A DNA stretch of 64,000 bases. Source: an uncultured virus (IMG/VR IMGVR_UViG_3300020247_000249). Its lineage: Duplodnaviria > Heunggongvirae > Uroviricota > Caudoviricetes. The translations under genes were made by a program, and so were the position numbers. Under the pieces are notes generated by a model. That model was not told where the DNA came from, ran no database searches, and saw only the letters and a program-made list of their open reading frames with translations. Where the stretch lies: the IMG/VR virus record IMGVR_UViG_3300020247_000249; one strand, 5' to 3'. Positions 26,847 to 51,745 of the stretch are shown here, one piece after another; the first letter of the stretch is position 1, and every line of letters begins with the position of its first letter.

Positions 26847-26997
26847 ATTGTATGACTATGTCGCTATAGTAATATTCACGCAGTTGTTTTACTATGGCGT
26901 CATAGGATTAATATACGGAGGATTCGTTGGAGGTATTGTATTATTCGTTACCTGGGAACTCTGGAAGATGTATGAAATATGGAGAGTTCAGCAATGA
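26839..26997 (+). CDS. Small membrane protein (52 aa), absent from the ORF track
   Basis: GAGGT SD, GTG start, hydrophobic, ATGA overlap with kdsB. Confidence 0.55.
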   Translation: MFRLYDYVAIVIFTQLFYYGVIGLIYGGFVGGIVLFVTWELWKMYEIWRVQQ

Positions 26998-27683
26998 CAA
27001 CAGCAATTTTAATTCCTGCTAGATATGGCAGTACACGTTATCCAGGCAAACCTCTTATAGACTTAGACGGCAAGCCTATGATTAAACGTGTGTATGATGC
27101 TTGTGTAGCAACTGGACGTGATACTTTTGTGTTAACAGACAGTATGAAAATTTTTCCTTTGTTCGGTTCAGACAGTTGTTGGATTGAGGAAACTCCATAT
27201 GAAAATGGAACTGCAAGATGTGCAGGAGCCGCTTCAAGTAATTTCTTTAAAGCATACGATACATTTATAAATGTACAAGGCGACATGCCAGACATTACAG
27301 AAACAATGATTGATCGATGTGAAGAATGGTTACAGTATTATTCTGTTAGTACTGTTTATACAACAATGCGTGAAGAAGAACAGAACAGACCCGAAAGTGT
27401 TAAAATGGTAAGAGCTGGAGATAAAGCACTGTGGTTCGGACGAGGCATGACCGGGTATGGAGAATGGCACTTAGGTGTTTATGGATACAAACGCAATGCT
27501 TTGGAAATGTATCCAAATCTAGAGATTCCAATCGAGGAAGATGTAGAAAAACTTGAACAACTACGCTGGTTAAAGAATGGTTGGGACATTGGATGTTCGC
27601 ATGTTGACTTCGACGGAGTTGAGATTAACACGAAAGAAGATGTTCACTTATGGAACTACAAGCATGGTGTGGAAGTTAAATAA
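26994..27683 (+). CDS. kdsB: 3-deoxy-manno-octulosonate cytidylyltransferase (CMP-Kdo synthetase)
   Basis: IPARYGSTRYPGKPL, NGTAR, INVQGD, HLGVYGY, EKLEQLRWL. Confidence 0.9.
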   Translation: MTTAILIPARYGSTRYPGKPLIDLDGKPMIKRVYDACVATGRDTFVLTDSMKIFPLFGSDSCWIEETPYENGTARCAGAASSNFFKAYDTFINVQGDMPDITETMIDRCEEWLQYYSVSTVYTTMREEEQNRPESVKMVRAGDKALWFGRGMTGYGEWHLGVYGYKRNALEMYPNLEIPIEEDVEKLEQLRWLKNGWDIGCSHVDFDGVEINTKEDVHLWNYKHGVEVK

Positions 27684-28381: not shown

Positions 28382-28573
28382 ATGATGGAATTTATCTGGC
28401 ATATATTATTAACAGTATGTTTAGGTTCAACATGTGTTGAACAAGATGTACAATGGTTTGAAACTGAAGAGGAGTGTTTTAAAATGCTAGCCGTATTTGA
28501 AACTCTTCCACCTGATGGAGATTGGTCAACAATACAGTACCAGTGTAAACCTATTAACTCTTTATCAACTTAG
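28382..28573 (+). CDS. Small Cys-rich protein
   Basis: AGGA SD; WHILLTVCLGSTC...FETEEEC...QCKP. Confidence 0.6.
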   Translation: MMEFIWHILLTVCLGSTCVEQDVQWFETEEECFKMLAVFETLPPDGDWSTIQYQCKPINSLST

Positions 28574-28580
28574 GAAAAGC

Positions 28581-29180
28581 ATGAACAACGAGAACTTAGA
28601 AGTATATCCACTGTTTGCTAAAACAATTATACGCACTCAAGTAGATTTAGAAGGCACAGATTTAAGTAAGATTGAATGGGTGCAAAACTATCAAAACAAT
28701 ATTAGTACTAGTCAAGCAGTACTAGATGATCCTCACTTTACTAAACTTAAAAAAGAATGTATGAAAGGTATTAACGATTACTTTCATGGTGTAATGAAAG
28801 TATCAGAAGATACAGAAATTTACATTACAGAGTCTTGGTTTAATAAAACTAACAAAGGACAAACACATCATAGGCATTGGCATCCTAACTCAACACTTTC
28901 AGCAATTGTGTTTATGTCAGGCGAAGCAGACAAAGGCGGACATACTAGTTTTATTACAAGTCAGTACGATACACTTGAATTTGATATTACAGAAGCAAAT
29001 CTTTACAACAGCAAAAGTTGGTCTGTAGATCCTGCTGTTGGAACAATGTTAATTTTTCCATCGAGCGTAGAACACTTAGTACAACCATACGATGGTGATG
29101 AGCCTCGCATATCATTAAGTTTTAATACTTTTGTAAGAGGCAAATTAAATCAACAAACATTAACAAGGTTAGAAGTATAA
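28581..29180 (+). CDS. Putative 2OG-Fe(II) oxygenase (TIGR02466-like)
   Basis: SWFN, HRHWHPNS, IFPSSVEHLV, RISLSFN. Confidence 0.85.
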   Translation: MNNENLEVYPLFAKTIIRTQVDLEGTDLSKIEWVQNYQNNISTSQAVLDDPHFTKLKKECMKGINDYFHGVMKVSEDTEIYITESWFNKTNKGQTHHRHWHPNSTLSAIVFMSGEADKGGHTSFITSQYDTLEFDITEANLYNSKSWSVDPAVGTMLIFPSSVEHLVQPYDGDEPRISLSFNTFVRGKLNQQTLTRLEV

Positions 29181-29791
29181 TGAAATTTGCATATTTTAAT
29201 CCTACGGTAATGGCCGTAGATGATGTTACTGCTGAACAATACAGTAGGTTACGTGAAATAGTAAATGCTGCTCACGAACATAACGAACACAATGATGAAG
29301 GCGATCCTAATATTAGCATTAGGGGAGGTCAGCAAGTACAAGTTGTTCCAAATGAATTTAAACTTGATACTTCTTTTTTATCTCAATACATTGAAGAACG
29401 ATGCCAAGCATATATTGACAACATTATTAAAACAAGTGGTGTTAGTGATTTAAATGGTTATAAGCCAATGCTTGTATCAGCATGGACTATTAAGCAAACA
29501 GCAGGCGACTACCAAGCATTACATAACCACGAAGCACATATTAGTGGGAATATCTATTTGGACGTTCCATTACTTGATGAAGGTTCAAAAAGCAGTGATG
29601 CAAATATTGAATTTAGATTACCAGTAATTAGAAACCCTGCTCATTTTGTGTTTACTGATCAGTGGCGTTTTAAGCCAGAACCTTTAAAGATGATTATATT
29701 TCCAAGTTATGTTTCGCATACTGTTTATCCGTGGAAAGGCCAAGGAAGTAGAACTATTTTGGCTTGGGACGTTAAACTTATAGCAAAATAA
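29180..29791 (+). CDS. Putative 2OG-Fe(II) oxygenase
   Basis: YQALHNH, ISGNIYL, IFPSYVSHTVYP, RTILAWD. Confidence 0.85.
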   Translation: MKFAYFNPTVMAVDDVTAEQYSRLREIVNAAHEHNEHNDEGDPNISIRGGQQVQVVPNEFKLDTSFLSQYIEERCQAYIDNIIKTSGVSDLNGYKPMLVSAWTIKQTAGDYQALHNHEAHISGNIYLDVPLLDEGSKSSDANIEFRLPVIRNPAHFVFTDQWRFKPEPLKMIIFPSYVSHTVYPWKGQGSRTILAWDVKLIAK

Positions 29792-31431: not shown

Positions 31432-32113
31432 ATTTAGAATTCAAGCAAGTAACTATGGTGGAGAACTTACCATTGGAGAGGTTAGTAAAGAGTTTGTAGA
31501 TTACTTTATTGACAAAGACGAATCGGACCTTATTGAAACTGTAACTAGTTACGAATGGGACGATGAAGACATGGGCGACAAAGATGCACCTAAAATTGCA
31601 GAAGATTTTAATGCATGGCATGAGTGTGATGAACTAGAACATCTTAATAACTCTTATGCTGACGGTGAATGGTTTGTTAACGAAGTACCTGCAGACGGTA
31701 GTGATGATTACGGGTGGGACGAAAATGAACTTAGGTTTGAACCGTATCACTTGTATGGCAGAGAAGCATATCATCAAGACAAAGAAGAAGAAGGATTGAT
31801 TCCAGTCCTTTGTTTTCATAGTGGAGAGAAGGGTGGCTTCGGTTCGTGGTTTGTTGAAACCGAAGGTGAAGACTTTGATCCTAAGAAACTAGCATTTAGT
31901 TCAGTTGAAACTAGTGTGTCTGAAATTGTCGAAAACGTTTGGTATGATAAAGTAGAACTTGAAGCAGACTTTGACTATAATGACACAACAGGCAAAGGCT
32001 ATTATGCTAGTGTTGGTTACTTCAATCCTAAGTGGCATGACAAAGAAGATATGTACACACCAGAATATTTAAAAGAAAACGAATATTGGGAAGGGTTTGA
32101 CGAGCAGGAATGA
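31418..32113 (+). CDS. Acidic hypothetical phage protein
   Basis: YGGELTIG, SGEKGGF, DTTGKG; GAGG SD. Confidence 0.7.
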   Translation: MAKRRFRIQASNYGGELTIGEVSKEFVDYFIDKDESDLIETVTSYEWDDEDMGDKDAPKIAEDFNAWHECDELEHLNNSYADGEWFVNEVPADGSDDYGWDENELRFEPYHLYGREAYHQDKEEEGLIPVLCFHSGEKGGFGSWFVETEGEDFDPKKLAFSSVETSVSEIVENVWYDKVELEADFDYNDTTGKGYYASVGYFNPKWHDKEDMYTPEYLKENEYWEGFDEQE

Positions 32114-32667
32114 TAAAGTTACCTATTAACTGTCCTTATGTTATTGGTGAGTTTGAACAACATGCAGAACTAAAGCAAGATGTTCTTAATGCTATTAACG
32201 AACAAGAAGTACAAGGATTACAAGAATCTGAAGATGCTGTAAACATCACGAGATCCGATTGGGAATCTGCAAGATGGGATTACAACAAGAAGTGGTTGCA
32301 CTTACTAGGAGACCATTTCCACAATCATCTTCTAAAAGTTTCTAAAGAGTTAGGGTACGAGTTTTATAGATTAAAAGAAATATGGTTCCAGCAATATGCT
32401 GATCAGAGCTATCATGGTTGGCATGTACATGGTGCTAACTGGACTAGTGTTTATTATTTAGACTTACCAGACGGTAGTCCACAAACAGAATATATAGTTC
32501 CTTATGAACAAACAGATGTACAAACGTTTGACATAAAAGAAGGACAAACTATTACATTTCCTAGTTTTGTTGTACACAGAGCTCCCATAAATAATAATGA
32601 TAAAATAAAAACAATCATATCATGGAATATGGATACTGAGATTGTGCCAGGATTGTACAGTGAGTAA
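32110..32667 (+). CDS. Putative 2OG-Fe(II) oxygenase
   Basis: WFQQY, HGWHVH, VYYL, FPSFVVHRAP, KTIISWN. Confidence 0.8.
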   Translation: MIKLPINCPYVIGEFEQHAELKQDVLNAINEQEVQGLQESEDAVNITRSDWESARWDYNKKWLHLLGDHFHNHLLKVSKELGYEFYRLKEIWFQQYADQSYHGWHVHGANWTSVYYLDLPDGSPQTEYIVPYEQTDVQTFDIKEGQTITFPSFVVHRAPINNNDKIKTIISWNMDTEIVPGLYSE

Positions 32668-33232
32668 CATTATAGATCAAAACGAAGTATTCAGAAAGTT
32701 TAACTTTAGCAGTACTATAACTGCTGAAGATAATCAAAATGCTATTGCTATTATAAAGCATATTATTGATAGTGGCAACTACTGGGAAAATAGTCCCAAG
32801 TATCAGACAAAAGAAAACATTTTTAGTAGACCAGAGCCACTATGGTTGAAGTATCGTATGAGCTTCTTGTTTAGTGTGTTTATGTACTTTGGACGTGAAG
32901 TGCAAGTAGGTAACATGCAGGCTTGGAGTTTTATGACAAACAAAGAAGGTGCAGAAGATAGAGAAAGACTTTGGCACCATCATCAACACAAACCAGAGCC
33001 TAAAAGCATGAGCGGTATTATGTACTTAGAAATACCCGACGATGTGCAGGACAAAAACTTATGTGGTACAGAATTCGCTCCTAACGGACCCAATAATGAC
33101 GGTAAATTCTTTGTTAAACCTGACGAATATACGTGGTTAATATACCCAAGCGAATACTGGCATCGTCCAGCGGCGCCACAAAGTGATAAATATAGATATA
33201 TAATAGCAGCAGACGTTGAAATCACAACTTAG
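32660..33232 (+). CDS. Putative 2OG-Fe(II) oxygenase-fold protein
   Basis: WHHH, SGIMYL, GTEF, IYPSEYWHRP, RYIIAAD. Confidence 0.7.
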   Translation: MSNIIDQNEVFRKFNFSSTITAEDNQNAIAIIKHIIDSGNYWENSPKYQTKENIFSRPEPLWLKYRMSFLFSVFMYFGREVQVGNMQAWSFMTNKEGAEDRERLWHHHQHKPEPKSMSGIMYLEIPDDVQDKNLCGTEFAPNGPNNDGKFFVKPDEYTWLIYPSEYWHRPAAPQSDKYRYIIAADVEITT

Positions 33233-33306: not shown

Positions 33307-34800
33307 ATGCCATTACAGATAAGAAGAGGAACCGACGCTGAACGCCAAGTACTAGCGACCGCTCCACAAGCGGGTGAGCTAATTTGGGTTACAGATCAAG
33401 CCAAACTGTACGTAGGTGACGGAACAACCTTACTAAAAGATTTAGAAGCAGTAACTGGTTTTAATGCAGAAGATGCACAAGACGCAGTTGCAAACATGCT
33501 TGTAGCAGGACCCAATACAGGTATTAGTTTTACATATAACGATGGGGCCAACACAATTTCCGCAACAGCAAATCAACCGCAGTTGCTACAGAATTTAGAC
33601 TTAAACTCATTCAACATTACTGGCAGTGGTGGATTGAACATAACTGGAAACAGCACAATTAATGGCAACTTGACTGTTGAAGGTAAAATTGTAGCAGACT
33701 ACAATGGTTCTGTATTTGGCGATGACTCAACTATACTAGTAAACGCAGTAGAAGGTGCTGTTAACTTATCCGGTACAGTAAAAGATAACATTGTACCTGG
33801 TACAGCAGACACACATAACGTTGGTGCACCTGGCACACAATTTAACAACGTTTATGTTAAAAACGGCGTATGGGTTGATGGTGCAGCAATTACGAATAAC
33901 GGTGGCGCTATTGAACTTCCAGCAGGTTCAACAGTAGGCGGACTAACACTTGGCGGTGTTGCAGAACCGGGAGCAAACGTAAATGCAAACATCATTGGTG
34001 ATGACTCTAGCACAATTGTTAATACTTCAAACAACTCCGTTACTGCAAACTCAGTTTCAGCAAGTTCTGTAACAGCAGCAGCAATTGACGGTGATTTAAA
34101 AGGAAGTGTATTCACTGACGATAGTACTGTTATTGTTAACTCTATTACTAAAGCAATTATTGCAGAAACAGTTACAGGTGACCTAAGAGGTAGCGTGTCA
34201 GGTGATGACTCAACTATACTTGTTGATGCTATTGCAAGTCAAATCAAAGGTAATGTGAATAATGATACTGTTGATACAGGTAATATCATTCTTAATAAAA
34301 ATTTAACAACAGGCGGCTTATTCCTTGAAACAGAAGGTGACGGTGAAGATGATTACGATCTATTCACTGTACAAGCATACAACGATGGTGCAGATGCACC
34401 AGCACAACAGGTTGTTAAAACTCGTGGTACAAAAGCAAGTCCAGCTGCTATTCAAAATGGCGATGGTATATTTAGAATTGCTTATATGGGGTACGGTGGA
34501 ACAACAGCAGGATCAATTGGTGTAGCAGTTGTTGTTGATGCTGAAGCTGATGGAACTATTGCAACTAATCAGGTTCCAGGTAGATATGTTGTACGTACAG
34601 CAACAGCCGCAGGTGGGTTAGATGAAGCTGTTAGATTCAATTCAAAACAAGAAACAGTATTTGGTGGGCCAGCTCAACTTAAATCATACACTACAACACA
34701 ACGTGATGCTCTTACAGCAGTTGCTGGACAGATGATTTACAATACTTCTACTTCTAAAATACAAGCGTATGCTGGTAGTAGTTGGGTAGACTTACACTAA
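33307..34800 (+). CDS. Tail fibre/virion structural protein
   Basis: N-terminal LQIRRGT...GELIWVTD...LYVGDG anchor; G/T/N/V-rich beta repeats; C-terminal TTTQRDAL...GQMIYNT...W. Confidence 0.8.
   Translation: MPLQIRRGTDAERQVLATAPQAGELIWVTDQAKLYVGDGTTLLKDLEAVTGFNAEDAQDAVANMLVAGPNTGISFTYNDGANTISATANQPQLLQNLDLNSFNITGSGGLNITGNSTINGNLTVEGKIVADYNGSVFGDDSTILVNAVEGAVNLSGTVKDNIVPGTADTHNVGAPGTQFNNVYVKNGVWVDGAAITNNGGAIELPAGSTVGGLTLGGVAEPGANVNANIIGDDSSTIVNTSNNSVTANSVSASSVTAAAIDGDLKGSVFTDDSTVIVNSITKAIIAETVTGDLRGSVSGDDSTILVDAIASQIKGNVNNDTVDTGNIILNKNLTTGGLFLETEGDGEDDYDLFTVQAYNDGADAPAQQVVKTRGTKASPAAIQNGDGIFRIAYMGYGGTTAGSIGVAVVVDAEADGTIATNQVPGRYVVRTATAAGGLDEAVRFNSKQETVFGGPAQLKSYTTTQRDALTAVAGQMIYNTSTSKIQAYAGSSWVDLH
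33706..34233 (+). repeat. Four dispersed peptide repeats GSVxxDDSTxxV in the fibre gene
   Basis: GSVFGDDSTILVN, NIIGDDSSTIVN, GSVFTDDSTVIVN, GSVSGDDSTILVD. Confidence 0.75.
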
Positions 34801-35919
34801 TTCCCAAACATAAGGATCTTTTTTAGCAACAGCAAAGTTGAGATAAGTTTCAATTTTGTCAAGGTCTTTAACTGTCTTTATAGAACACAATTCATTTGCA
34901 AAGTGTAGTTCAACACCTTTCTCTAATGCTAGATTAAAAAGCTCTTTGCGTCTTTCAACATCATCAGTCATTGAATAGATACTGCATAGTACAATAACAT
35001 CTGGTTGTTCATTAATATAAAATTCTAAACCAGGCATCCAGTCTAGGTGTTCGTTTTCAAATTCGTAACTTGTATATTCAATTTTGTTTTTAATGCAGTA
35101 TGGCTCAATAATTGCTCTTTGCATAGGTAACGGAATTTGATTTGAAAACTTACTGTTCCAGCCTGCATATGTTATAGCACTTTTTCCTGTATAGTCTGCT
35201 TCTCCAGCAACTTCATGATCGCCTGGTAAGCGCATAAATCCTCCTGGATGTCTTCTACCGTATTCTTCACCTTCAATAAGGATACGCATGTCCATGCTTA
35301 CCCGTGTATAACCTTCTTCGTTGTTTACGTTACCATGTAACATCTCTTGAAAGAACAAATGGCTTTGTCCTGGCTTTAGTGTAATGGGAAACGCATGTTT
35401 CAAACATTCATCTTCTATCTGTTCCAAACTCCATTTCTCAGCCATAATTTGTTTTGTAATTCTTCTACTATTTTCTACATCTACCATCCACATAGTGTTA
35501 GTACCACGTGCTTCTGTAAACGGTGTCCATATAGTTCTACAACCTCTGCCATTACCTACAAAGATACCTTGATGGAAAGCAAGTCTTCGTCCTACACTTG
35601 CTTGATTAGGAATAACAACACGCAACGTTCCTTGACGCTGGATCATGTATCTTTTATTATCGATACGCTGCGGAATATATTCAGCAACAAAAGCATCAAA
35701 GCGTTCCATAAAGTCTTTACGACTACATGCATTTTGTACATGCCTACTAACAGTTACAATTTCTTTAGGAGATAGTACTTCGTGTAGTGTTTCTAGTTTA
35801 GTAACCTGTGGTGCTACTTCTTGTACAACACTTAACGCCCATGCAGGCCAGTTGAATTTTTCTAGATCGTATTCTAATGTACAATTATTAAATTCTTTTT
35901 GAAGTGATGTTAGTTCCAT
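34792..35919 (-). CDS. StrG/PhyH-like 2OG-Fe(II) enzyme with HxG motif, fused to a C-terminal alpha/beta domain
   Basis: TLRVVIP, FHQG, TIWTPFT, LHGNVNN, TRVSMDMR; the C-terminal IPLPMQRAIIEPYC...IVLCSIY...ELHFANE resembles TIGR04323 sporadic carbohydrate cluster proteins. Confidence 0.7.
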   Translation of the reverse strand: MELTSLQKEFNNCTLEYDLEKFNWPAWALSVVQEVAPQVTKLETLHEVLSPKEIVTVSRHVQNACSRKDFMERFDAFVAEYIPQRIDNKRYMIQRQGTLRVVIPNQASVGRRLAFHQGIFVGNGRGCRTIWTPFTEARGTNTMWMVDVENSRRITKQIMAEKWSLEQIEDECLKHAFPITLKPGQSHLFFQEMLHGNVNNEEGYTRVSMDMRILIEGEEYGRRHPGGFMRLPGDHEVAGEADYTGKSAITYAGWNSKFSNQIPLPMQRAIIEPYCIKNKIEYTSYEFENEHLDWMPGLEFYINEQPDVIVLCSIYSMTDDVERRKELFNLALEKGVELHFANELCSIKTVKDLDKIETYLNFAVAKKDPYVWELV

Positions 35920-36413
35920 TATTTCCTCGTGTTTACTTGGCAAGTATTAAAGTTGAAGTTGCTGGCATTTCCAGCACAGTGTATATCTTCATGTGTAAAT
36001 GTCCATACATCACCTTTTTCCCATTTAGTAATAGGTTGTTGCTCAAACTCAACAAGATGTCCTAATGTCCAATCTTCTAAAAATATAAGATATCTTAAGC
36101 AATCATCAATGTCCACATTATGCTTTTTTCTAAGTTTAAAAAATTTGTCTGCATGTACAGGAATAGTTCCTGACGGCTTAATTTGTGTCCAGCTTATACT
36201 GCTGACTGCTTCATCTTCAATGTATAGTTCTTTAAAGAACCTACCATAACATTTTGGTAATTGTCCATCAAACCCTTGCATTAAATTATTTGTTTCATCA
36301 AAGTAAGCATCATGAAAATTTTCATTCTGTCCTGTGCTTACAGATTCGGGCCATTTGTAATTCTGTAAATCTTCTTTCCAGAAGTCATCTACTTTGCCCC
36401 AGTACTTTAGCAT
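35919..36413 (-). CDS. Cupin/2OG-Fe(II) oxygenase
   Basis: PVHAD, IFLEDWTLGH, HCAGN. Confidence 0.75.
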   Translation of the reverse strand: MLKYWGKVDDFWKEDLQNYKWPESVSTGQNENFHDAYFDETNNLMQGFDGQLPKCYGRFFKELYIEDEAVSSISWTQIKPSGTIPVHADKFFKLRKKHNVDIDDCLRYLIFLEDWTLGHLVEFEQQPITKWEKGDVWTFTHEDIHCAGNASNFNFNTCQVNTRK

Positions 36414-37465
36414 TATGTATAATCCTCCAATACACCTTTACGTTTTAAATCAAGTGTTGCACAATGCAAACCACCACTTAAAGTCATAGCATGTCTAAAG
36501 CGTACAGGTACACTAGTAATACCATGCTTGTCTAATTCTTTCATTAAAGGTTCTTGAGTATCATCTACCACAACAGTATCGTGATTAATACTTAAAATAT
36601 TCATTCCTATATAAGGACTACAAGGAGCAACACCTCCTGGTATCTTACTTCCTTGAGCAACACAATCATCAAACCAAATCTTATCCCATTTCTCAAATAC
36701 CTTAGGACAGTTTTCTGCGGTTACTCTTGAACTGTTTAGTAATACTAATCCAGGACGTAAAGGTACTATTGTGCTATCAAAGTGTCCGTAACTGTAAATA
36801 TGTTCTGCAGGGTGTATACGATAACCTCTATGCTCTAAAACATTTTGTAGCCATTTCAGTCCCCAGTGGTTACCTGTGTTACTAATTTGGAATAATATGT
36901 CTTTACCTAAACGTACACAATTTGGTGCATCAAAGATAGGTTCTAAGTTTAGCAAACTAGGCTTGCCTTCAATATCTTCAAATTGATATCCTTCATCTGG
37001 CAATATTGGCTTAGGTGCAGCAATCCATTCAACACCATCGTCAATTGCTTCTAACATGATGTTTCTGTATGCTCTTGTTTCATATTGCCTTGCACGACAA
37101 GCACTTGGAGTTTCAATTACTAAGTTGTCCATTGGCAATAGTAAATCTCTAGGACACCACGTATACCAACCTGTAGTTTTCCATTCAGGTGTACTAAATT
37201 CTACACTGTGATCAATAGGAATAGGTCTGTGTACTTTTATACCTTCTTTAGATAAAACGTCACTCAGTCCTTGTAAATCTTCGTTGGCTTCGTCAATAAG
37301 CCATTCTGGGTATGCGCCTTCTAAAGGCTTAATTAAATCTATAGGATGATTAGTGTAGCTCATACTCATAGTGCTACGATCAACAGTTGGTACTCTAGCA
37401 TGATCAGCTATTCCAACTACTATCTCTTCTAAGGGATCCCAATGGTTGTGAGTAGATACTTTCAT
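36413..37465 (-). CDS. Amidinotransferase (glycine/inosamine-phosphate amidinotransferase family)
   Basis: HNHWDPLEEIVVG, CPRD, FDAPN, HFDST, MNILSI, GGLHCATLD. Confidence 0.92.
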   Translation of the reverse strand: MKVSTHNHWDPLEEIVVGIADHARVPTVDRSTMSMSYTNHPIDLIKPLEGAYPEWLIDEANEDLQGLSDVLSKEGIKVHRPIPIDHSVEFSTPEWKTTGWYTWCPRDLLLPMDNLVIETPSACRARQYETRAYRNIMLEAIDDGVEWIAAPKPILPDEGYQFEDIEGKPSLLNLEPIFDAPNCVRLGKDILFQISNTGNHWGLKWLQNVLEHRGYRIHPAEHIYSYGHFDSTIVPLRPGLVLLNSSRVTAENCPKVFEKWDKIWFDDCVAQGSKIPGGVAPCSPYIGMNILSINHDTVVVDDTQEPLMKELDKHGITSVPVRFRHAMTLSGGLHCATLDLKRKGVLEDYT

Positions 37466-37466
37466 G

Positions 37467-38015
37467 TTATTCCTTTTTAAATGTATCTTTGTTAATATAT
37501 ATCAGCAAAGACAGCCAGTCTTGCGAAGTGTGGTTCCATGCTTCGTGTGGTATTTGTGCATTAAAAACAATTGGTTTGCTAACGTCTGCTATATCTTCTC
37601 CAACTTTAACACCTAACTCTCCTTGTGGAATATGGAAACCTGTAAACACATTATAGAATGGAGTTTCTTCGTACAACGGCCTTTCCATATCATCAATATG
37701 CTTTGGCATAATAGACTTAGGGCCTATGTTTATAATAGCAGCACGTTCAACACCTTGCATACTTTCAAGTATATCACAAACAGGTTTTAGTCTTGGTATT
37801 CGATTATCTTTATCTGGGTGAAATATACAAATACGGAAGTCTACGTTATCTCTATCTTTTGGATGTATTTCTGTTAAGTCAGGACTGTCATCATATTCTG
37901 TTACATCAACTAGATGTTCTACAATACAAAACTTATTAGGTATAGCAGTCTTTGCTGCTTCTACTGCTTGTAAAAACTTATCATGGTCAACGTATGTTTT
38001 AATATCATGCAACAT
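37467..38015 (-). CDS. Aspartyl/asparaginyl beta-hydroxylase-like oxygenase
   Basis: PKHID, FNAQIPHEAWN. Confidence 0.72.
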   Translation of the reverse strand: MLHDIKTYVDHDKFLQAVEAAKTAIPNKFCIVEHLVDVTEYDDSPDLTEIHPKDRDNVDFRICIFHPDKDNRIPRLKPVCDILESMQGVERAAIINIGPKSIMPKHIDDMERPLYEETPFYNVFTGFHIPQGELGVKVGEDIADVSKPIVFNAQIPHEAWNHTSQDWLSLLIYINKDTFKKE

Positions 38016-38919
38016 GGTTAATAAGTGCTTCCTTGTTTGCTATATTTGTTTTTGCTATACTGTTTATTACTTCTTGTTTATTTTCAACTGTGTTAACGTC
38101 TAATTGTTTAGGAAATGTAAGTATGTTTACTGACCACTCAACATCTTTTAAACTGTTAATATAGTTTTCTAAATCAACAAGTCCGTGATAGTTATTTCTA
38201 TGTAGCACAGTGTTTACACTTAATTTGTAACCCCATATCTTTACTTGATCGATAAAGCGTTCTATCTTATTCCATTCGCAGTTTTTTCTTACACGCTCAT
38301 TTAGTTCGCCATAGCCGTCAAGACTTAGAATGAATTCAACACTTTTACATTTTTCAAGTTGCCTTATTGTTTCTTTGTCTAACATAAATGTACCGTTAGT
38401 GTTGTATATCACTGTCATTTTACTTAGATCGTTTACCATTTCTAGTAAGCGTCTATGCCTGTTAGTCATTAACGGTTCGCCACCTAAGAATAATATCTTT
38501 GTTACAGTGTCTGGAATAGAAGTTATTTCATCACTGCTTACAATATGTTTCTTTTTATTTGGGTCTAGTATCTTACCCCACTCGCTGCTAAACTCTGGAT
38601 AACAACCGTCGCAGGCTGCATTACAAATATTATCAAACCCTATTTCTAAATATTCTAATTTTACTTCTTCTGTGTCATACTCAGCATTAAAGCGTTCACG
38701 CAAACTATTCTTGCCTAGTGACTCTTCGTGTATGCATTTTGCACAATTAGGATTATCTTCAACCGGCGTTTCTCTTAACTTTTGCATTTCTGGTAAGTCA
38801 AGTATCTTATTTAGATTACCGTCAAAAACAGCAACAGGTTCTTTGTAGCGACAGCAAGGAAATATTCTATTTCCACTACGCACATTAGTATGCTTATAAA
38901 ATGCTGCACATTTACTCAT
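38005..38919 (-). CDS. Radical SAM protein with N-terminal Cys-rich (twitch/SPASM-like) region
   Basis: PCC...CAKC; CNAACDGC; FLGGEPL; YNTNGT; LSLDG. Confidence 0.9.
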   Translation of the reverse strand: MSKCAAFYKHTNVRSGNRIFPCCRYKEPVAVFDGNLNKILDLPEMQKLRETPVEDNPNCAKCIHEESLGKNSLRERFNAEYDTEEVKLEYLEIGFDNICNAACDGCYPEFSSEWGKILDPNKKKHIVSSDEITSIPDTVTKILFLGGEPLMTNRHRRLLEMVNDLSKMTVIYNTNGTFMLDKETIRQLEKCKSVEFILSLDGYGELNERVRKNCEWNKIERFIDQVKIWGYKLSVNTVLHRNNYHGLVDLENYINSLKDVEWSVNILTFPKQLDVNTVENKQEVINSIAKTNIANKEALINHVA

Positions 38920-40108
38920 ACGATGGCGGTCTCTGTACTAGATTACTATATCCTGTTTGATTAAGATAATAGTTTACTTCCTCTCTTGGTGCACCATAAT
39001 GCTCAACCAAATAATCAAAAAGTAAATGTTGTTTATCAAGATAACGCTTTGCTAATTGATAGTTATGTTCTATATCATCAATTAGTCCTTGCGGCTTCTT
39101 AAGTTTTAAAAAGTCTGCTGTATTAGTTACAATTGCATCAAGACGTTGCTCCTCTGTTTCAAGGTGTGCATACTCTGGTATAGTCATGTATTCTGTAAAT
39201 GTTCTGAACCCAAGATTTTCCATATATTTGAACTGATCTATGTCGCCTGCAAACAAGAACGGGTGTTTATGAAATACTGCTCTCCAAAATTTTTCTGTCA
39301 CAAAAGAATTGTTTGTACTATAATTCCAATAGTTAGGGCCTTCACTAATAATGCTTAAACACGTTTCTGGAAATATGCTACTGTCAATTAGTGCAGGTGC
39401 TTTAGCCCAATCAGTATCACCAACATCATGCCAATCACCTGTTTGATAATATTCTTCTGCAAAAAACTTTTTAGCATTTTCGTATTCATCACCTATTCTT
39501 CTATCAGCAAAATTACAAAACTCGTTAAATTCTTCTTCTGATAAAATATGCATTATATCCTTGCATACTTTACGTTCTTCTTCTGTCCATGGAACAAAGA
39601 ATGTCCAAATAGCATTATAGTCTAACATTCCAAGTTTATAATACTTGTAAAGCAATCCTATACGATTCATTCTCGATGGCACACCGCCAAGGAATAAAAA
39701 TTTATTTGCATGTGGATTGTATTCAGTTAGTTTATTTTTTTTAATTCTATCTTCGTAAGATTTATAAGTGAATTGAAGTGTGTAATCAATAGAATACATT
39801 TTATCAAATGCTACAGGCATAATCCATTCGTGTCCACCATGGCCTGAAACAAACACTAGTTTTTCTATTCCTAGTTTTGTACAACGCTCTTTCATCTTAG
39901 CAACTTCACCTGGCCATATATTCGGCTCTAGATTTAAAACACCATCAATCATCATTACTGCAATGACAGTATCACACCCGTCTTTGGCTGCTTGTTTAAG
40001 TTCTTTGAATATCCACTTTAGTTTTAATTTGCTGAATACCTGTTTATCAAGATTCCATCTATTATTATCAGGCGTCCATTCTATATTAACTACTCTTGCT
40101 TTATGCAC
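38912..40108 (-). CDS. Hypothetical protein, possible glycosyltransferase-like C-terminus
   Basis: FLFLGG...NRIGLL, SIISE, FVTEKFWRA...HPF, LGFRTF, HNY (GT10-like EK motif). Confidence 0.5.
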   Translation of the reverse strand: MHKARVVNIEWTPDNNRWNLDKQVFSKLKLKWIFKELKQAAKDGCDTVIAVMMIDGVLNLEPNIWPGEVAKMKERCTKLGIEKLVFVSGHGGHEWIMPVAFDKMYSIDYTLQFTYKSYEDRIKKNKLTEYNPHANKFLFLGGVPSRMNRIGLLYKYYKLGMLDYNAIWTFFVPWTEEERKVCKDIMHILSEEEFNEFCNFADRRIGDEYENAKKFFAEEYYQTGDWHDVGDTDWAKAPALIDSSIFPETCLSIISEGPNYWNYSTNNSFVTEKFWRAVFHKHPFLFAGDIDQFKYMENLGFRTFTEYMTIPEYAHLETEEQRLDAIVTNTADFLKLKKPQGLIDDIEHNYQLAKRYLDKQHLLFDYLVEHYGAPREEVNYYLNQTGYSNLVQRPPSYE

Positions 40109-41025
40109 TGTGCGAACTCCTCAATTGACATAGGTAGAAATTTATGAAAACTGAGCCTATTCAGTTCAGCATCAGGACTGCCGCCACCTCTATCGTATTC
40201 TACATACTTGTCTTGAGGCGCAATACCAAATAATACCGTGCTACTAGGCTCGACACCTAAATGTTTACAAAATTCTAATTGTTGTGATTTATACTTTTTA
40301 TAGATAAAGTCAGGACTATAATTTTCCATTAATTGTAAACCTATATAAGCACCTAGTCTATTCACGTAACTATTTTTGTTATAAACAAATAAAGTATCAT
40401 CGTCATCGTATTTGCTTAAACGCATACCTATCCTTGCATGTGCTACTGGAAATGTTTTTGATAAACTAAAAACAATATCAGTTATACATTCGTGCTTAAA
40501 GTTAAATTCTATAGCAGACGATATACCAAAATAGCAACAGTCAAGTAAAACAGGTATACCTAGTCTATCACATTCATCTAATGCTGCTTCGTGTAACTTG
40601 TGTTTGTTTCCTGTATTACTAAAAGGTAAACTAATAACTAGTGCGTCATTGGCATCTAAACAATCATCATCGGCATACAACCAATTAAATTTATCACGCC
40701 ATGCTAACTGGTGATAAAGATATTCACCTCTAAAACATCTGAATCTTCTATCCTTATGCTTCATGTAAAATTTATCAAATGATTCAGTAGTACCATGAGA
40801 GTAACATTTGTAAGGAAAATCATCTATGCCTGCCATTAAATTTAGAGCTGACATTCTAATCCAAGCATGATATCTTTCTAAATATTCTTCAGTTACATTT
40901 ACATCATACATATGTTCTGTGAATCTAAGAGGCATCATGTTCAAAAAGTTCATTACTTCTTGATCGAGGACTGCTCCTGAATGTCCAAATGGTAAATGTT
41001 TTTTATCGTATGGAAACTTTTGCAT
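40090..41025 (-). CDS. PLP-dependent aminotransferase-fold protein
   Basis: GTTESFD, SLPFSNTG, LLDCCYF, FSLSKTF (Lys), RIG. Confidence 0.78.
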   Translation of the reverse strand: MQKFPYDKKHLPFGHSGAVLDQEVMNFLNMMPLRFTEHMYDVNVTEEYLERYHAWIRMSALNLMAGIDDFPYKCYSHGTTESFDKFYMKHKDRRFRCFRGEYLYHQLAWRDKFNWLYADDDCLDANDALVISLPFSNTGNKHKLHEAALDECDRLGIPVLLDCCYFGISSAIEFNFKHECITDIVFSLSKTFPVAHARIGMRLSKYDDDDTLFVYNKNSYVNRLGAYIGLQLMENYSPDFIYKKYKSQQLEFCKHLGVEPSSTVLFGIAPQDKYVEYDRGGGSPDAELNRLSFHKFLPMSIEEFAQCIKQE

Positions 41026-41046
41026 ACTAGTATTTATATGCGCAGT

Positions 41047-41883
41047 TTATACCTGTTGAATTTTTATGTTTTCGTAGTGTGATCTTGGAGTTGTCGGATC
41101 GCCTTGTTGATCCATACGCTTTGGATTGGAAGGACACATTGAGCAAAAACTTTCACATCCTCTAGCAAAAAACTCTGCTAGTTCTTGATCTGTGCAATCT
41201 GCTGTTATTGGCTTATACTTTAAATAGGGATCCCATTTAGGAGATAAGTTGTATAATTTCTTTTGGAATGGTAGATATGCTAGTGGCGCACATTTGTATA
41301 TTTCGTTATCTAGTAGTTGGAAACAATCTTGTCCTGTAATACAATTGTCCCAACTCTTCTGTGCGTCATTGTCTTCATAAGGCATCATATTGTTTCCATA
41401 CCCTTTGTATATTTCAAACCAATATGTATGGCACGGAGCAACTTCTGCTTTAATGTTATAATCTTTTTTCCATTGTAATAGTAATTCTTCTGCAGGAGCA
41501 AACTTTTTCATATATGCTTCTTTAGTACTATGCTTACTAAGACTAATAGATATATTAGTTTCTTCTAACACTTTAGGTAAGTCAGGATACTTGTAAAGCA
41601 GAAAGCCATTAGTTTGTAAATTTAAGTTTTCGCAGTCGGGCCAGTACTTTCTTGTTAAGAAAAGAATATTATAAATGTCTTTGTTTAGTAGAGGCTCTCC
41701 TCCTAGTATATCAATGGTTTCTGGATCAAGTCTATGAGCCCAGCTCTTATACCAAGATTCTAACTCGTCATACTTCACTATACCTGTATGTCTATGATTA
41801 CTAAAATGCCCACACCCTACACATGTAAGATTACATGAGTGAGCTACATGCCACTCAAGATGTGAGATTTTTAACTTTGACAA
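41047..41883 (-). CDS. Radical SAM protein with C-terminal Cys cluster
   Basis: CNLTCVGC, ILGGEPLL, QTNG, YKC, CSMCP. Confidence 0.92.
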   Translation of the reverse strand: MSKLKISHLEWHVAHSCNLTCVGCGHFSNHRHTGIVKYDELESWYKSWAHRLDPETIDILGGEPLLNKDIYNILFLTRKYWPDCENLNLQTNGFLLYKYPDLPKVLEETNISISLSKHSTKEAYMKKFAPAEELLLQWKKDYNIKAEVAPCHTYWFEIYKGYGNNMMPYEDNDAQKSWDNCITGQDCFQLLDNEIYKCAPLAYLPFQKKLYNLSPKWDPYLKYKPITADCTDQELAEFFARGCESFCSMCPSNPKRMDQQGDPTTPRSHYENIKIQQV

Positions 41884-42811
41884 GGTCTACTCCTTTGAAT
41901 GCTTTCTTTCTGTTTTTATCAAATTGTACATCAACTGAAAGTTCTTTTGGCTTTGGTTTTTTGTGCATAGCACACAAAGAACATGCTGGAATTGACTTTC
42001 CTATATTGTTAAAGAAGTCTTGCATTGTTTCTTTGTCTTGGTCTACTGTTAATGGCTTATAATCTTCTAATAATGGGTATGCTCTTTCTTCGTAATATGT
42101 TTGTGTTTTTAATTCATCATAGTTTAGCACTAGAGGACATTTAAATAGTTTGCCTCGTTGTAGTGTATGGCAGTGTTGTCCGTATAAACATGCATCATGA
42201 CTCTCTTCTCTGTCGCCATCATCTAAAATTATTGTATTGTCTTTTACTTCTTTTACATAGTTAGGAAACATCTTATCTACAATAGTATGTCCAATAGCAT
42301 ACTTTCCATCAATCTGCCACATATCTAAATGTTCAAATCCGTATGGATCATCATAATCTGGATTTATCCTTTCAGCTCTGTCGCCGAATGGTTCTAGAAT
42401 TTTATCAATGAACATTTTAAATTTAGGAATATCTTTTTGATCATGTCCTGATAAATTTAAACATACACCTGCTTCTAAAAATGTACGAGTTGTTTCAACA
42501 TTCTTTTTCAATCCTAATAATGTTCCGTTAGTTACAACGTTCACTTGGCTATCTGGCCATAGGCTTTTAATACCTAATGCCCAGTCTAACAGTTCAGGAT
42601 TAAGATATGGCTCTCCTCCTAGTATGTCAATCTCTGGGAAGTTTGCTTTCTTAGCCCATTCTTCATAAAGATGCTTTTCTTCCTTCCAAGACATTACTCC
42701 TGCAAAATTATAATTCTGCAATGTACCACATGCATTACATGTAAGATTACAGGTATTGTTTATAATAATGCATACAGGATTTTCACTGGGTAGGCTTAAT
42801 CTATTATCCAT
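41855..42811 (-). CDS. Radical SAM protein with C-terminal Cys cluster
   Basis: CNLTCNAC, ILGGEPYL, VTNG, FKCP, CSLC; start reassigned to MDNRL. Confidence 0.92.
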   Translation of the reverse strand: MDNRLSLPSENPVCIIINNTCNLTCNACGTLQNYNFAGVMSWKEEKHLYEEWAKKANFPEIDILGGEPYLNPELLDWALGIKSLWPDSQVNVVTNGTLLGLKKNVETTRTFLEAGVCLNLSGHDQKDIPKFKMFIDKILEPFGDRAERINPDYDDPYGFEHLDMWQIDGKYAIGHTIVDKMFPNYVKEVKDNTIILDDGDREESHDACLYGQHCHTLQRGKLFKCPLVLNYDELKTQTYYEERAYPLLEDYKPLTVDQDKETMQDFFNNIGKSIPACSLCAMHKKPKPKELSVDVQFDKNRKKAFKGVDLVKVKNLTS

Positions 42812-42851
42812 ATTACTATTTATAAGAGCATATAACTGCATAAGTAACTAT

Positions 42852-43583
42852 ATGAATGCTGTAGATTTCTATGAAAAAAACAAAGATTGTATATGGAAAA
42901 TGCCTGCGGCTCCTGCTGATTGCAGCAATGACGTAGAACTAGCACATTGGTTGTTGAACAAAGCCAACTTTGGTTGGTTAGAATTAGACATAGATATTCC
43001 TATAGACTTATGGAAGTCAGATATACAGCATACTAAATTCTATAACCATAGAGGAAATGATCACCCAGGTTGGAACAGTGCTTGTATTCATGGCATTGAT
43101 GTTGACAAAACCGGTGCATGGACAAATTACGGCTATGAGCGTGAAGAAGATGTTCCTTACAAATGGACTACACTAAGTGAATCTACACCAAGTATAAAAA
43201 GTTTTTGGCAACGTTTTCCTTATGAAACTTATCGAAGAATACGACTTATGCAAATAGAGCCAGAAGGTTATATTAGTCCACACAGTGACGCACCTGGAAA
43301 GTTACCAGGTGAGGATAATTTAGATATTTTAGAGTTTGGTGTTCCTATCAATGTAGCAATTATACACCCTAAAGATTGTGTAATGACTCTTGAAGGATAT
43401 GGTTGTGTACCTTTTGAAGAAGGCAAGGCATTTATTATAAACATTAGAAACTATCATAGTGTTATTAATCCATCTAATCAATCAAGGATACATTTAATTT
43501 CACATGGTATTCCAGGAAAAAGTAAAAAAGAATTTGCAGAGCTTGTAGCAAGGAGTTATCGAAAACAATATGAATATAGTTGA
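42852..43583 (+). CDS. Aspartyl/asparaginyl beta-hydroxylase-like oxygenase
   Basis: RIRLM, YISPHSD, NYHSVIN, RIHLI. Confidence 0.8.
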   Translation: MNAVDFYEKNKDCIWKMPAAPADCSNDVELAHWLLNKANFGWLELDIDIPIDLWKSDIQHTKFYNHRGNDHPGWNSACIHGIDVDKTGAWTNYGYEREEDVPYKWTTLSESTPSIKSFWQRFPYETYRRIRLMQIEPEGYISPHSDAPGKLPGEDNLDILEFGVPINVAIIHPKDCVMTLEGYGCVPFEEGKAFIINIRNYHSVINPSNQSRIHLISHGIPGKSKKEFAELVARSYRKQYEYS

Positions 43584-46121: not shown

Positions 46122-46817
46122 ATGAGTAACAACTTTGAATATTACTATAACACAGTTCCCGGAAAAGGTCAATGCCGAAATAATCTAATATACACTAGTT
46201 TGATTAGTAAGGATAAAAAGACATTTTGCCAATGGTACTATAATGATGAGCAATATCATGGCGGACACAATCAAGTAGTTGATCCTGACCTAATGGAAGA
46301 AAAATGGTTACGTGAGATTAACTTTATACAAGAAATGGAAATGCACTATCCACAACATGTTCCAGAAATACAAGATATTGACTTTGTTAATAGAAAATTA
46401 TTTTTAAAGATTGACGGTCCTGATATGTGGGAACTTGCCGGCTGTGAAGGAAAAGACTATAGTGTAGTTGACAATTGGGAACAGCAAATGCTTGATATTA
46501 TCGAAGCACATAAAAACTTAGGTATATACAAGTATAGTATGCACCCTAGCAGTTACTTTGTAGTAGACGGAACATTAAAAAGTATTAACTATTTTTTCTG
46601 TTATAAGGATAATGATCCTGCAATAAGTTTACGCAGTGTAATGAGTCATATTAGTGAGGATCGTCAAGCAGACTTGTTTCCTAAAATGACAGCGGCAGGT
46701 ATTGATGTTAATACTCCTACTGAACATGTTAAAATACAACAACTAGCATTTGACAGTTTTAAAACAAACTTCCCAGATAGTACTATGGAAAAGGCAAAAC
46801 AAATATATGCAGCCTAA
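46122..46817 (+). CDS. Protein-kinase-fold protein with degenerate catalytic loop
   Basis: WLREINF, VPEIQDID, GIYKYSMHPSSYFV, LKSINYF; paralog of 51053-51745. Confidence 0.55.
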   Translation: MSNNFEYYYNTVPGKGQCRNNLIYTSLISKDKKTFCQWYYNDEQYHGGHNQVVDPDLMEEKWLREINFIQEMEMHYPQHVPEIQDIDFVNRKLFLKIDGPDMWELAGCEGKDYSVVDNWEQQMLDIIEAHKNLGIYKYSMHPSSYFVVDGTLKSINYFFCYKDNDPAISLRSVMSHISEDRQADLFPKMTAAGIDVNTPTEHVKIQQLAFDSFKTNFPDSTMEKAKQIYAA

Positions 46818-47817
46818 ATTAAAAATACTTGATGTGTTCTATGGAAACATGTGTAACCTTACCTGTACTCAATGTGATGTGCGTAGCGATATATTTAGGA
46901 AAGGCGAGTATGACAAAGATTTAGAAAATATCAAAGAAGGTATAAGACTTGCAAGTGAGAAGTTTGAAATTGAAAACTATACATTGCTAGGTGGAGAGCC
47001 TCTTTTGTATATGGACCGTATTGTTGAACTAGCAAAATACATTAGGTCTATTGCACCTAACACAGTTATCATGTGTCCTACCAATGGAGCATTATTATCA
47101 AAGAATAAAGAATGGTGTGTAGAGTTAATTGAAAAATATAAAGTATTACTAATTGTTAGCGATCACTTTGCACAGTTTGAAGATAAGAAATTATCAAATA
47201 GAGTTAGGCAGGCAGCGATAGAAGTTCAAGAGAAAATTCAATTCCCGCAGTTAGATGCTGTAGACTGGTTTTACGAAATATTTGATTTTAATAATGAAAA
47301 GCAAGATCCTTTGTTTCAAGGTTGGCTTGACTTGTTAAGTATTACACACGAAGATGTAAACTATGGATTAGAAAACGATTTGTTTTTCTTAAAAGAAAGA
47401 CACGGCTTATACTATAAACAGTATGGTGTGTTTCAAAAACATCATTACATTAATGAATTTGGAAAACCTAAACCATACAACGAAGGCGATCCTGAATCAT
47501 CATATAAAAGAGGTTGCTGTAGTCCATGGTGTACATATATGCATGACAAGAAGTTATGGAAGTGTGGTTCATTAGGAACACTGCATAGATTCTTATCACA
47601 TCATAATAGTTTAGATGATCCTGATTGGCAAATGTATTTAGAATACAAACCATTAGATTTAGAAACTTGTACAGACGAAGAAGTAGCACAATTTAACTTA
47701 GACAAATATAGATCAGTTAAGCAATGTCAAATGTGTCCTAAGAACGGTGACGACTTTACTAAAACACCAGAGATGGTTTTGCCTAACAAGAGAAAAATAA
47801 ATGTACAAAGTATCTAA
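46807..47817 (+). CDS. Radical SAM protein with C-terminal Cys cluster
   Basis: CNLTCTQC, LLGGEPLL, PTNG, WKC, CQMCP. Confidence 0.92.
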   Translation: MQPKLKILDVFYGNMCNLTCTQCDVRSDIFRKGEYDKDLENIKEGIRLASEKFEIENYTLLGGEPLLYMDRIVELAKYIRSIAPNTVIMCPTNGALLSKNKEWCVELIEKYKVLLIVSDHFAQFEDKKLSNRVRQAAIEVQEKIQFPQLDAVDWFYEIFDFNNEKQDPLFQGWLDLLSITHEDVNYGLENDLFFLKERHGLYYKQYGVFQKHHYINEFGKPKPYNEGDPESSYKRGCCSPWCTYMHDKKLWKCGSLGTLHRFLSHHNSLDDPDWQMYLEYKPLDLETCTDEEVAQFNLDKYRSVKQCQMCPKNGDDFTKTPEMVLPNKRKINVQSI

Positions 47818-51060: not shown

Positions 51061-51745
51061 CTCCAAACAATTCCTTGTATATGTAACTCATGTTTTCATC
51101 TCCCCATAAAACATGTTCTCCTAGACTACGCTTAAACATAATTTCTAAATTGACCTTGTCGTCAATTGGCTCACCTGTTTCGTCTAGTCTAAATTGTGCT
51201 GTGTCGTGTATAATACCTTGCATATATTTTTGCTCAATGAAAGGATCGTCAATAGGAACACAGCCGTACCAATCAATTGCTTTCATTTGTTTTGTATCTG
51301 TAATATAGTGACAGTGTGGATACATTGTTAACTTGTAGATACCTTCATCATACTGGTCAACTATAATATCTCTAATTTGCCTACGCCACATATACTCAGG
51401 CCACTCTTTAATTTCAGGATCATTAATTATTTGGTTACAGCTCTTGCCATACCATTTAATATAAATCTTTTGATTTTTGTAATCAATGTCTTTAACTTCT
51501 GGTGCATACTTTTTATCTTTAAAAAGCTCTAAGTATGTTAGTTCGTTTTGAAAAAACCAATCAACAACTTCTTTAGTGTAAAGTGGCCTTGGTTTGTTTT
51601 CCATCTTTTGATATTCGCTATCAACATTATAATTCTTACAAAACGTTGTTCCGTCTTCACTTATAAGAGGTTCATAAGTTTGCTGAGCCATACACGGCCA
51701 GCCTTCTGGATCTAGTTTAAGATATGGTTGCCATTTAGCGTTCAA
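51053..51745 (-). CDS. Protein-kinase-fold protein
   Basis: FQNELTY, APEVKDID, GIYKLTMYPHCHY, KAIDWYG. Confidence 0.55.
   Translation of the reverse strand: MNAKWQPYLKLDPEGWPCMAQQTYEPLISEDGTTFCKNYNVDSEYQKMENKPRPLYTKEVVDWFFQNELTYLELFKDKKYAPEVKDIDYKNQKIYIKWYGKSCNQIINDPEIKEWPEYMWRRQIRDIIVDQYDEGIYKLTMYPHCHYITDTKQMKAIDWYGCVPIDDPFIEQKYMQGIIHDTAQFRLDETGEPIDDKVNLEIMFKRSLGEHVLWGDENMSYIYKELFGDG

Follow-up and report, generated by a model that had tools for sequence, protein, structure and literature searches.

Introduction

Radical halogenases that depend on Fe(II) and 2-oxoglutarate (2OG) are reported to have one marker in common, the loss of the carboxylate ligand from the iron site, and within families they are interleaved with hydroxylases; the structure-mining of Kipouros and Chang (2026) used as its signature two His with no further ligand nearby (accessible part of PMC13489965). 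In SyrB2, CytC3 and CurA Hal the motif is H-x-A, and the substrates are amino acids bound to carrier proteins. HygX, the orthoester-forming enzyme of hygromycin B biosynthesis (PDB 4XCB), which acts on a sugar substrate, has instead the motif 'H-X-G E-X3-H', in which the acidic ligand has moved and its former position is taken by a glycine; the gap left by this glycine is filled by Lys137, which was proposed to tune reactivity (accessible part of PMC13374393). Human aspartate/asparagine beta-hydroxylase (AspH) is a natural two-His Fe/2OG hydroxylase, for which the accessible part of PMC6817910 reports no halogenase activity with chloride and which is described there together with a catalytically viable D201G variant of FIH. 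Here we analyze a gene for a two-domain enzyme, encoded in a stretch of 64,000 nucleotides (the window) from an uncultured virus, IMG/VR record IMGVR_UViG_3300020247_000249, in which a glycine, Gly118, stands at the position of the carboxylate ligand. The viral record of which the window is a part has a length of 119.7 kb. An earlier note on this DNA had read the gene as a candidate phage Fe(II)/2OG halogenase. Our results favor, with moderate confidence, a PhyH-type Fe(II)/2OG oxygenase with a putative rebuilt 2-His-1-Gln site, fused to a resolvase-fold domain.

Gly118 is a clade character of the enzyme family

The enzyme gene probably starts with the ATG at 35919-35917; in the sequence TAATG this codon overlaps with the TAA that ends the upstream gene. 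Feature coordinates are collected in Table 1. The first metal motif had been given in the earlier note as F-H-Q-G (codons 35574-35566), and codon-level reading agreed with it: on the minus strand, ttc (35577-35575), cat (35574-35572), caa (35571-35569) and ggt (35568-35566) encode F115, H116, Q117 and G118, respectively. The distal His (in LHGN) and the 2OG-binding R-x-S (in TRVSMD), described in that note as retained, are indeed present as H195 (cat, 35337-35335) and as R206/S208 of the segment T205-R206-V207-S208-M209-D210, while caa at 35349-35347 encodes Q191, at the position four residues before the distal His (His-4). In a profile search of PDB sequences, FH-x-[D/G] aligned with FHQD of PtlH (E 5.1e-8), H195 fell on the distal His and R206/S208 on the 2OG-binding R-x-S. 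Because this alignment pairs all motif residues, the assignment of the metal motif is right.

A word-indexed search returned 621 homologues at E<=0.001. Homologues are 371-381 amino acids (aa) in length; the best 120 are 75-98% identical to the query and of the same length, and marine metagenomes are the source of most of the best homologues. When aa 1-240 were searched exhaustively against cluster representatives, 343 matched at E<=0.001. From those listed, the 105 with a length of at least 200 aa were aligned with the query, and a 107-row alignment (A1) was made for the analysis of conservation, the tree and the structure model. Gly118 was found in 120/121 close homologues including the query, the sole exception (P0047) having Cys. 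In A1, H116, W131, F189, H195, G196 and R206 are invariant and S208, D210 and N200 are conserved in at least 90% of the rows, whereas position 118 is divided between Asp (73/107) and Gly (34/107).

In a maximum-likelihood tree for the oxygenase domain, from which the trait column was left out and which was rooted on Asp-type outgroups, all 34 Gly rows fell in a single clade of 44 rows (SH-like approximate likelihood-ratio test support 99), together with 10 Asp rows; each of the 63 rows outside this clade has Asp. The tree implies seven changes between Gly and Asp, at least three of them forced by well-supported branches, and with this rooting rows combining Asp with a small residue at His-4 arise repeatedly within the Gly/Gln clade. 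Thus, Gly118 is a clade character. The earlier note had allowed for the glycine being a singleton or a sequencing variant; its conservation in 120/121 close and 34/107 diverse rows shows that it is neither chance nor such a variant. The same note had named another Asp or Glu completing the triad as a possible objection, and the alignment contains no clade-specific conserved Asp or Glu that could do so. Glu192 was considered separately as a relocated ligand and was ruled out, as Glu occurs there in only 68% of the Gly rows.

Gly118 is paired with Gln at His-4

Residue 191 is the best separator of Gly rows from Asp rows. Gln191 was present in 22/22 non-redundant Gly rows, in 1/10 Asp rows within the clade and in none of the 63 rows outside it, as well as in 121/121 close homologues including the query. 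Among 238 sequences, all 142 rows that have Gly118 plus a residue at position 191 have Gln there, while among the 83 Asp118 rows Gln and Glu each occur in a single row (P0136 and P0145, respectively) and the remainder have S, A, P, N, T, G, H and similar. Relatives with the canonical motif also have a small residue at His-4 (PtlH Ala, AndA Gly, EasH Gly, PhyH Pro), and so, in an alignment that is weak (E 1.4), does the halogenase CytC3 (Ser). In SyrB2 the equivalent serine may line the pocket for chloride.

A second search, seeded with an Asp-type member of the clade (P0126, with Met at His-4), added 49 sequences, 47 with Gly and Gln, one with Gly and Glu (P0394) and one fragment, which brings the Gly-type sequences to 189/190 with Gln, 1/190 with Glu and 0/190 with a small residue at His-4. 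The exceptional protein, P0394 (383 aa), is encoded on a 6.1-Mb contig, and over 368 residues it shares 33% identity with the query; it has an H-Q-G motif, its Glu189 aligns gap-free to Gln191, and it is nested among Gly/Gln rows (support 82). It is the only Gly-type member of the family with a HygX-like H-x-G...E-x3-H motif. The side-chain atoms lost from Asp to Gly are about those gained from Ser to Gln, which suggests a near compensation of volume at the site. Judged from these alignments, the Gly-Gln coupling is very consistent, yet few independent events lie behind it.

The modeled fold places the enzyme in the PhyH-type subfamily

The AlphaFold2 model built on A1 has a mean predicted local distance difference test score (pLDDT) of 96.7 and a predicted template modeling score (pTM) of 0.92, and its N-terminal domain is a PhyH-type double-stranded beta-helix. 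The top match in VIA-align was PtlH (Z 13.8, root-mean-square deviation [rmsd] 3.6, 213 aligned), followed by PHYHD1 (12.7), AviO1 (12.1), CurA Hal and EvdO2 (both 11.8), and SyrB2 and KanJ (both 11.2), with HygX (10.1; rmsd 4.8, 201 aligned), HalB (9.8) and WelO5 (9.3) scoring lower. The top neighbors are PhyH-type oxygenases, many of them with sugar or aminoglycoside substrates (PtlH, AviO1, EvdO2, KanJ, HygX). In Foldseek, ThoJ, PtlH, EctD, GriE and SyrB2 (3.8e-7) followed CurA Hal in this order. The modeled fold thus groups the enzyme with both SyrB2-type halogenases and sugar or aminoglycoside oxygenases and does not discriminate between them.

Compared with HygX, the phage enzyme has the same type of fold, an H-x-G motif and, in Q191-x3-H195, the spacing of the HygX E-X3-H, but Gln in place of Glu at His-4; no sequence match to HygX was detected, the likeness being one of fold and motif spacing. 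With SyrB2, CytC3 and CurA Hal it shares the PhyH-type fold and a carboxylate position without a ligating side chain, and unlike them it has H-x-G. Like AspH, which hydroxylates with only two His ligands (PMC6817910, in part), it has no canonical carboxylate; it differs in belonging to another subfamily, since AspH falls in Pfam PF05118, which two other genes of the window match and the two-domain enzyme does not.

The two domains match families that travel together

In an NCBIfam scan, aa 35-213 matched TIGR04324 ('sporadic carbohydrate cluster 2OG-Fe(II) oxygenase'; E 8.4e-22), with a score below the curated cut-off (77.9 against 150 bits; 78.5 bits in a genome search), and aa 260-361 matched TIGR04323 (E 3.4e-12), likewise below its cut-off (46.4 against 55 bits). 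The fusion to a second domain resembling sporadic carbohydrate cluster proteins, as proposed in the earlier note, is therefore present on the same open reading frame (ORF). These were the only NCBIfam matches; no Pfam family matched the enzyme at E<=0.01, and no halogenase family model of NCBIfam or Pfam did so at that threshold. There was also no match in a tblastn search of the enzyme against 50,697 phage records, Melnitz and HTVC008M included, or in a phmmer search against PDB sequences, and within the 119.7-kb record the enzyme matched only itself, with no paralogue. TIGR04325 and TIGR04326, which we take to be cassette partners of TIGR04324 and TIGR04323, gave no match in the 119.7-kb record; for TIGR04326 this is uninformative, as control genomes were equally silent.

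Residues 245-351 of the C-terminal domain resemble the catalytic domain of serine recombinases (3guv_A, Z 12.2, rmsd 2.4, 101 aligned, 9% identity; Bxb1, Z 12.1; both VIA-align), and no resolvase family in Pfam matched this domain at E<=0.01, so that the likeness is one of fold only. A search with the C-terminal domain yielded chiefly fragments of fused proteins. TIGR04324-type and TIGR04323-type parts travel together, either fused or as neighboring genes, and the phage enzyme, whose domains have these two families as their best matches, keeps this partnership. It differs from the wider TIGR04324 family, which has H-x-D and a small His-4 residue, in the H-x-G plus Gln of its clade.

Gly/Gln members were also found in bacterial metagenome-assembled genomes (MAGs) of Planctomycetota and Bacteriovoracaceae. 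In the Bacteriovoracaceae MAG (L043), the two domains are separate, adjacent genes, and the Gly/Gln gene adjoins genes for a glycosyltransferase and a UDP-galactopyranose-mutase-like protein. In a phylum sample around this MAG, family members occurred in 26/401 genomes, often as pairs of an oxygenase and a TIGR04323 gene; this sample has 27 distinct ORFs, of which 26 are of the Asp type and lack Gln at His-4 and the remaining one is the Gly/Gln protein of the MAG itself, so that the 401 genomes added no new Gly-type row. A genome-contig search with P0144 gave no match beyond the MAG of P0144 itself.

A proposed rebuilt iron site weighed against halogenation and other readings

The reading that we favor is that of an oxygenase whose iron site has been rebuilt. 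His116 and His195 would be kept as iron ligands, the canonical Asp being replaced by Gly118, and Gln191, on the strength of its spacing and of HygX, is predicted to reach the metal, where it would supply the third ligand or hold a water or oxo ligand. The enzyme would then not halogenate but use a sugar-type substrate for oxygen chemistry, by hydroxylating it or oxidizing it in a related way; reaction type and substrate class are both what we infer. Gly/Gln and Asp/small may be two interchangeable ways to build one site, and such interchangeable builds would give the alternation seen on the tree. By analogy with AspH and FIH D201G, two-His sites can hydroxylate, and H-x-G by itself does not make a halogenase, as AspH and HygX illustrate.

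Several points weigh against this reading, and many of them speak for the most serious alternative, a radical Fe(II)/2OG halogenase in which Gly118 would open a site for chloride or bromide, the amide N-H of Gln191 would stabilize the halide, and a sugar-type C-H would be halogenated. We regard this alternative as possible but unlikely. We know of no natural 2-His-1-Gln 2OG oxygenase, no search aimed at one having been made, and the proposed contact between Gln191 and the metal is drawn from motif spacing and the HygX analogy. The independent-pairs test of the Gly-Gln coupling is underpowered, with two pairs on well-supported branches (p 0.5) and seven on the best tree. CurA Hal was the top Foldseek match (E 1.6e-9, against 5.5e-8 for PtlH), and it is found with SyrB2, HalB and WelO5 among the structural neighbors at Z 9.3-11.8, although hydroxylases score equally high or higher in VIA-align. 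Several features expected of a radical halogenase are present, namely the double-stranded beta-helix, both His, the 2OG-binding Arg within an intact R-x-S, and a glycine replacing the carboxylate, with no clade-specific Asp or Glu to take its place; carboxylate loss marks all known radical halogenases, their families are typically interleaved with hydroxylases, as on our tree, and both of the predicted 2His-Gly/Ala enzymes that were tested are halogenases, according to the accessible part of PMC13489965. The neutral amide N-H of Gln191 beside the open site is a plausible halide holder and could equally well hold a halide there, an anion-binding role would also explain why Gln rather than Glu is found in 189/190 Gly rows, and halide is ample in a marine setting. 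However, Gln191 lies at the position of the relocated ligand of HygX, which in P0394 is occupied by Glu, a carboxylate that would be unsuited to halide binding; the combination of Gly with a small residue, as the Ser of the weakly aligned CytC3 would lead one to expect, was seen in none of the 190 Gly-type sequences; no halogenase family model matched; and the H-x-G enzymes AspH and HygX do not halogenate, as far as the accessible parts of PMC6817910 and PMC13374393 report. The halogenase proposal of the earlier note is therefore sustained in its motif assignment, in a glycine that extends across the clade and in the lack of an extra Asp or Glu, and is weakened by the Gln191 pairing at the HygX ligand position, by the missing CytC3-like small residue and by the precedent of AspH. 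In its farthest-reaching form, which we consider no more probable than the halogenase reading as such, this widespread enzyme would be an Fe/2OG radical halogenase, the first encoded by a virus, with a Gly118/Gln191 halide pocket unlike those described, and would chlorinate or brominate a building block of sugar type while the phage infects abundant marine bacteria.

A hydroxylase of the AspH kind, with two protein ligands only and with Gln191 in the second sphere or in substrate binding, has the activity of AspH and the viability of FIH D201G (PMC6817910, in part) in its favor, and in HygX the gap at the glycine is filled by Lys137 with a proposed role in reactivity tuning (PMC13374393, in part). 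We nevertheless judge it improbable, more so than halogenation, as the strict Gly-Gln pairing, the exchange of Gln and Glu at the HygX position and the apparent volume compensation point to a direct role of Gln191 at the vacated site. It could also be argued that the oxygenase domain has lost its redox activity and acts for the resolvase-fold domain as a module for binding or scaffolding, given the missing canonical ligand, the lack of a Pfam match and the TIGR04324 score below cut-off. This we hold to be very improbable: across 107 diverse rows there is little or no variation at the two His, at Arg206, at Ser208 and at further core positions, the Gly/Gln pair is strictly conserved (189/190), and the family is abundant (621 matches). 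Against the favored reading stands also the gene neighborhood, which differs between phages: an amidinotransferase gene is near the enzyme gene in 13/41 related viral loci, the upstream arrangement being kept in only some of them, and elsewhere the neighbors are genes for DnaB, DNA ligase, ClpX and Dam.

Genome context

The window contains phage genes for a prohead protease, endolysins and a tail-fibre-like protein. The enzyme gene is preceded by a tightly packed run of genes, including those for an amidinotransferase and three radical S-adenosylmethionine (SAM) proteins (Table 1), which, judged from its gene content, may make a guanidino-bearing sugar or cyclitol. A substrate deduced from this context was rejected as weak, because the neighbors differ between phages, as the count of loci with an amidinotransferase shows. 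Elsewhere in the window, a cytidylyltransferase and an NDP-sugar epimerase hint at a phage-encoded pathway for activated sugars; with the sugar-related neighbors of the Gly/Gln gene in the Bacteriovoracaceae MAG, they count in favor of a sugar-type substrate, which is plausible.

Table 1. Features of the enzyme gene and of the surrounding window (radical SAM, radical S-adenosylmethionine protein).
Feature	Position	Strand	Basis or remark
Two-domain enzyme, coding sequence, 375 aa (P0001)	34795..35919	-	stop codon 34792-34794
N-terminal oxygenase domain, predicted PhyH-type Fe(II)/2OG (aa 1-235)	35215..35919	-	TIGR04324 match and model
His116, predicted proximal iron ligand	35572..35574	-	107/107 rows; aligns with His of PtlH H-x-D
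Gly118, at carboxylate-ligand position	35566..35568	-	Gly 34, Asp 73 of 107 rows
Gln191, distal His-4; predicted relocated third ligand or halide/water partner	35347..35349	-	pairing with Gly118; HygX E-x3-H spacing
His195, predicted distal iron ligand	35335..35337	-	invariant; aligned to distal His of PtlH, AndA, EasH, PhyH
Arg206-Val207-Ser208, predicted site for 2OG C5 carboxylate	35296..35304	-	R206 invariant, S208 in at least 90% of rows; PtlH R-x-S
C-terminal TIGR04323 (LIC12192-family) domain, serine-recombinase catalytic-domain fold (aa 245-370)	34810..35187	-	TIGR04323 match; 3guv_A, Bxb1
Co-directional run upstream of enzyme gene, tightly packed	35922..42841	-	enzyme gene is last of run
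164-aa unknown protein	within 35922..42841	-	upstream run
StrB1-type amidinotransferase	36416-37465	-	E 2.7e-95 to PDB 1bwd
AspH-family protein, Asp_Arg_Hydrox (PF05118)	37470-38015	-	Pfam match
Twitch-domain radical SAM	38008-38919	-	upstream run
Unknown proteins, 398 aa and 311 aa	within 35922..42841	-	upstream run
Two radical SAM proteins	41050-42841	-	upstream run
Second Asp_Arg_Hydrox (PF05118) gene	42756-43583	+	Pfam match
Four PHROG 81 2OG-Fe(II) oxygenases, nearly tandem	28497-29180, 29180-29791, 32110-32667, 32642-33232	+
Tail-fibre-like gene with Mtd_N domain	33307-34800		directly downstream of PHROG 81 oxygenases
CTP_transf_3 cytidylyltransferase (CMP-Kdo or CMP-nonulosonate type)	26979-27683	+	E 5.5e-23
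NDP-sugar epimerase	51738-52649	-
Further radical SAM genes, at least 6	46750-47817, 54078-55349, 55312-56259, 56237-57637, 57640-58719, 59317-60303
686-aa protein	20143-22203	+	relatives in Methylophilales phage Melnitz and Pelagibacter phage HTVC008M

With at least nine radical SAM genes in 64 kb, the window has an unusual density of such genes for a phage. The two genes matching PF05118 belong to the AspH family, whose human member is a two-His enzyme.

The 686-aa protein shares 70% identity with an 'adenylate/guanylate cyclase catalytic domain' protein from Melnitz; with a protein from HTVC008M the identity is 49%. As these are its nearest cultured relatives, the phage is probably a myovirus of marine heterotrophs. 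A label as cyanophage or giant phage was considered and found unsupported, Melnitz and HTVC008M being the nearest cultured relatives of this protein. Because the same protein places the phage near these myoviruses, the CheckV completeness of 34% for 119.7 kb may be too low. Another viral contig carrying a homologue of the enzyme (L011, 7132-11748) has genes for NuoB-like (Oxidored_q6), SufB/D, cytochrome b and dihydroorotate dehydrogenase proteins, which adjoin those for DnaB, Dam and a HhH-GPD glycosylase; such a gene set means either that the metabolic load is unusual or that a cellular fragment was misclassified.

Significance

Literature searches found no paper on the 'sporadic carbohydrate cluster' family and, judged from the titles and abstracts listed, no description of a phage halogenase that depends on 2OG. 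The readable part of the supplement to the halogenase atlas has no row for TIGR04324 or 'sporadic', and the table of its Fig. 1c has no phage or virus row (PMC13489965, in part). The earlier note had called halogenation unusual for a phage; a viral halogenase would not be without precedent, flavin-dependent ones being known from cyanophages (PMC10452541, in part), but a virus-encoded Fe/2OG halogenase would be new.

Either outcome would be a chemical novelty for a phage gene that is very common, with 621 homologues at E<=0.001, and the case cautions that reliance on H-x-G alone leads to too many halogenase calls. Should the site bind halide, the enzyme would represent a halogenase family that is new and absent from the published structure-mined atlas, and the first viral Fe/2OG halogenase, with a sugar-type substrate. 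If Gln191 binds iron, the family would contain a naturally occurring facial triad of the 2-His-1-Gln kind that has toggled with 2-His-1-Asp several times, and it would serve as a natural experiment, already in place, on the effect of ligand charge on ferryl chemistry.

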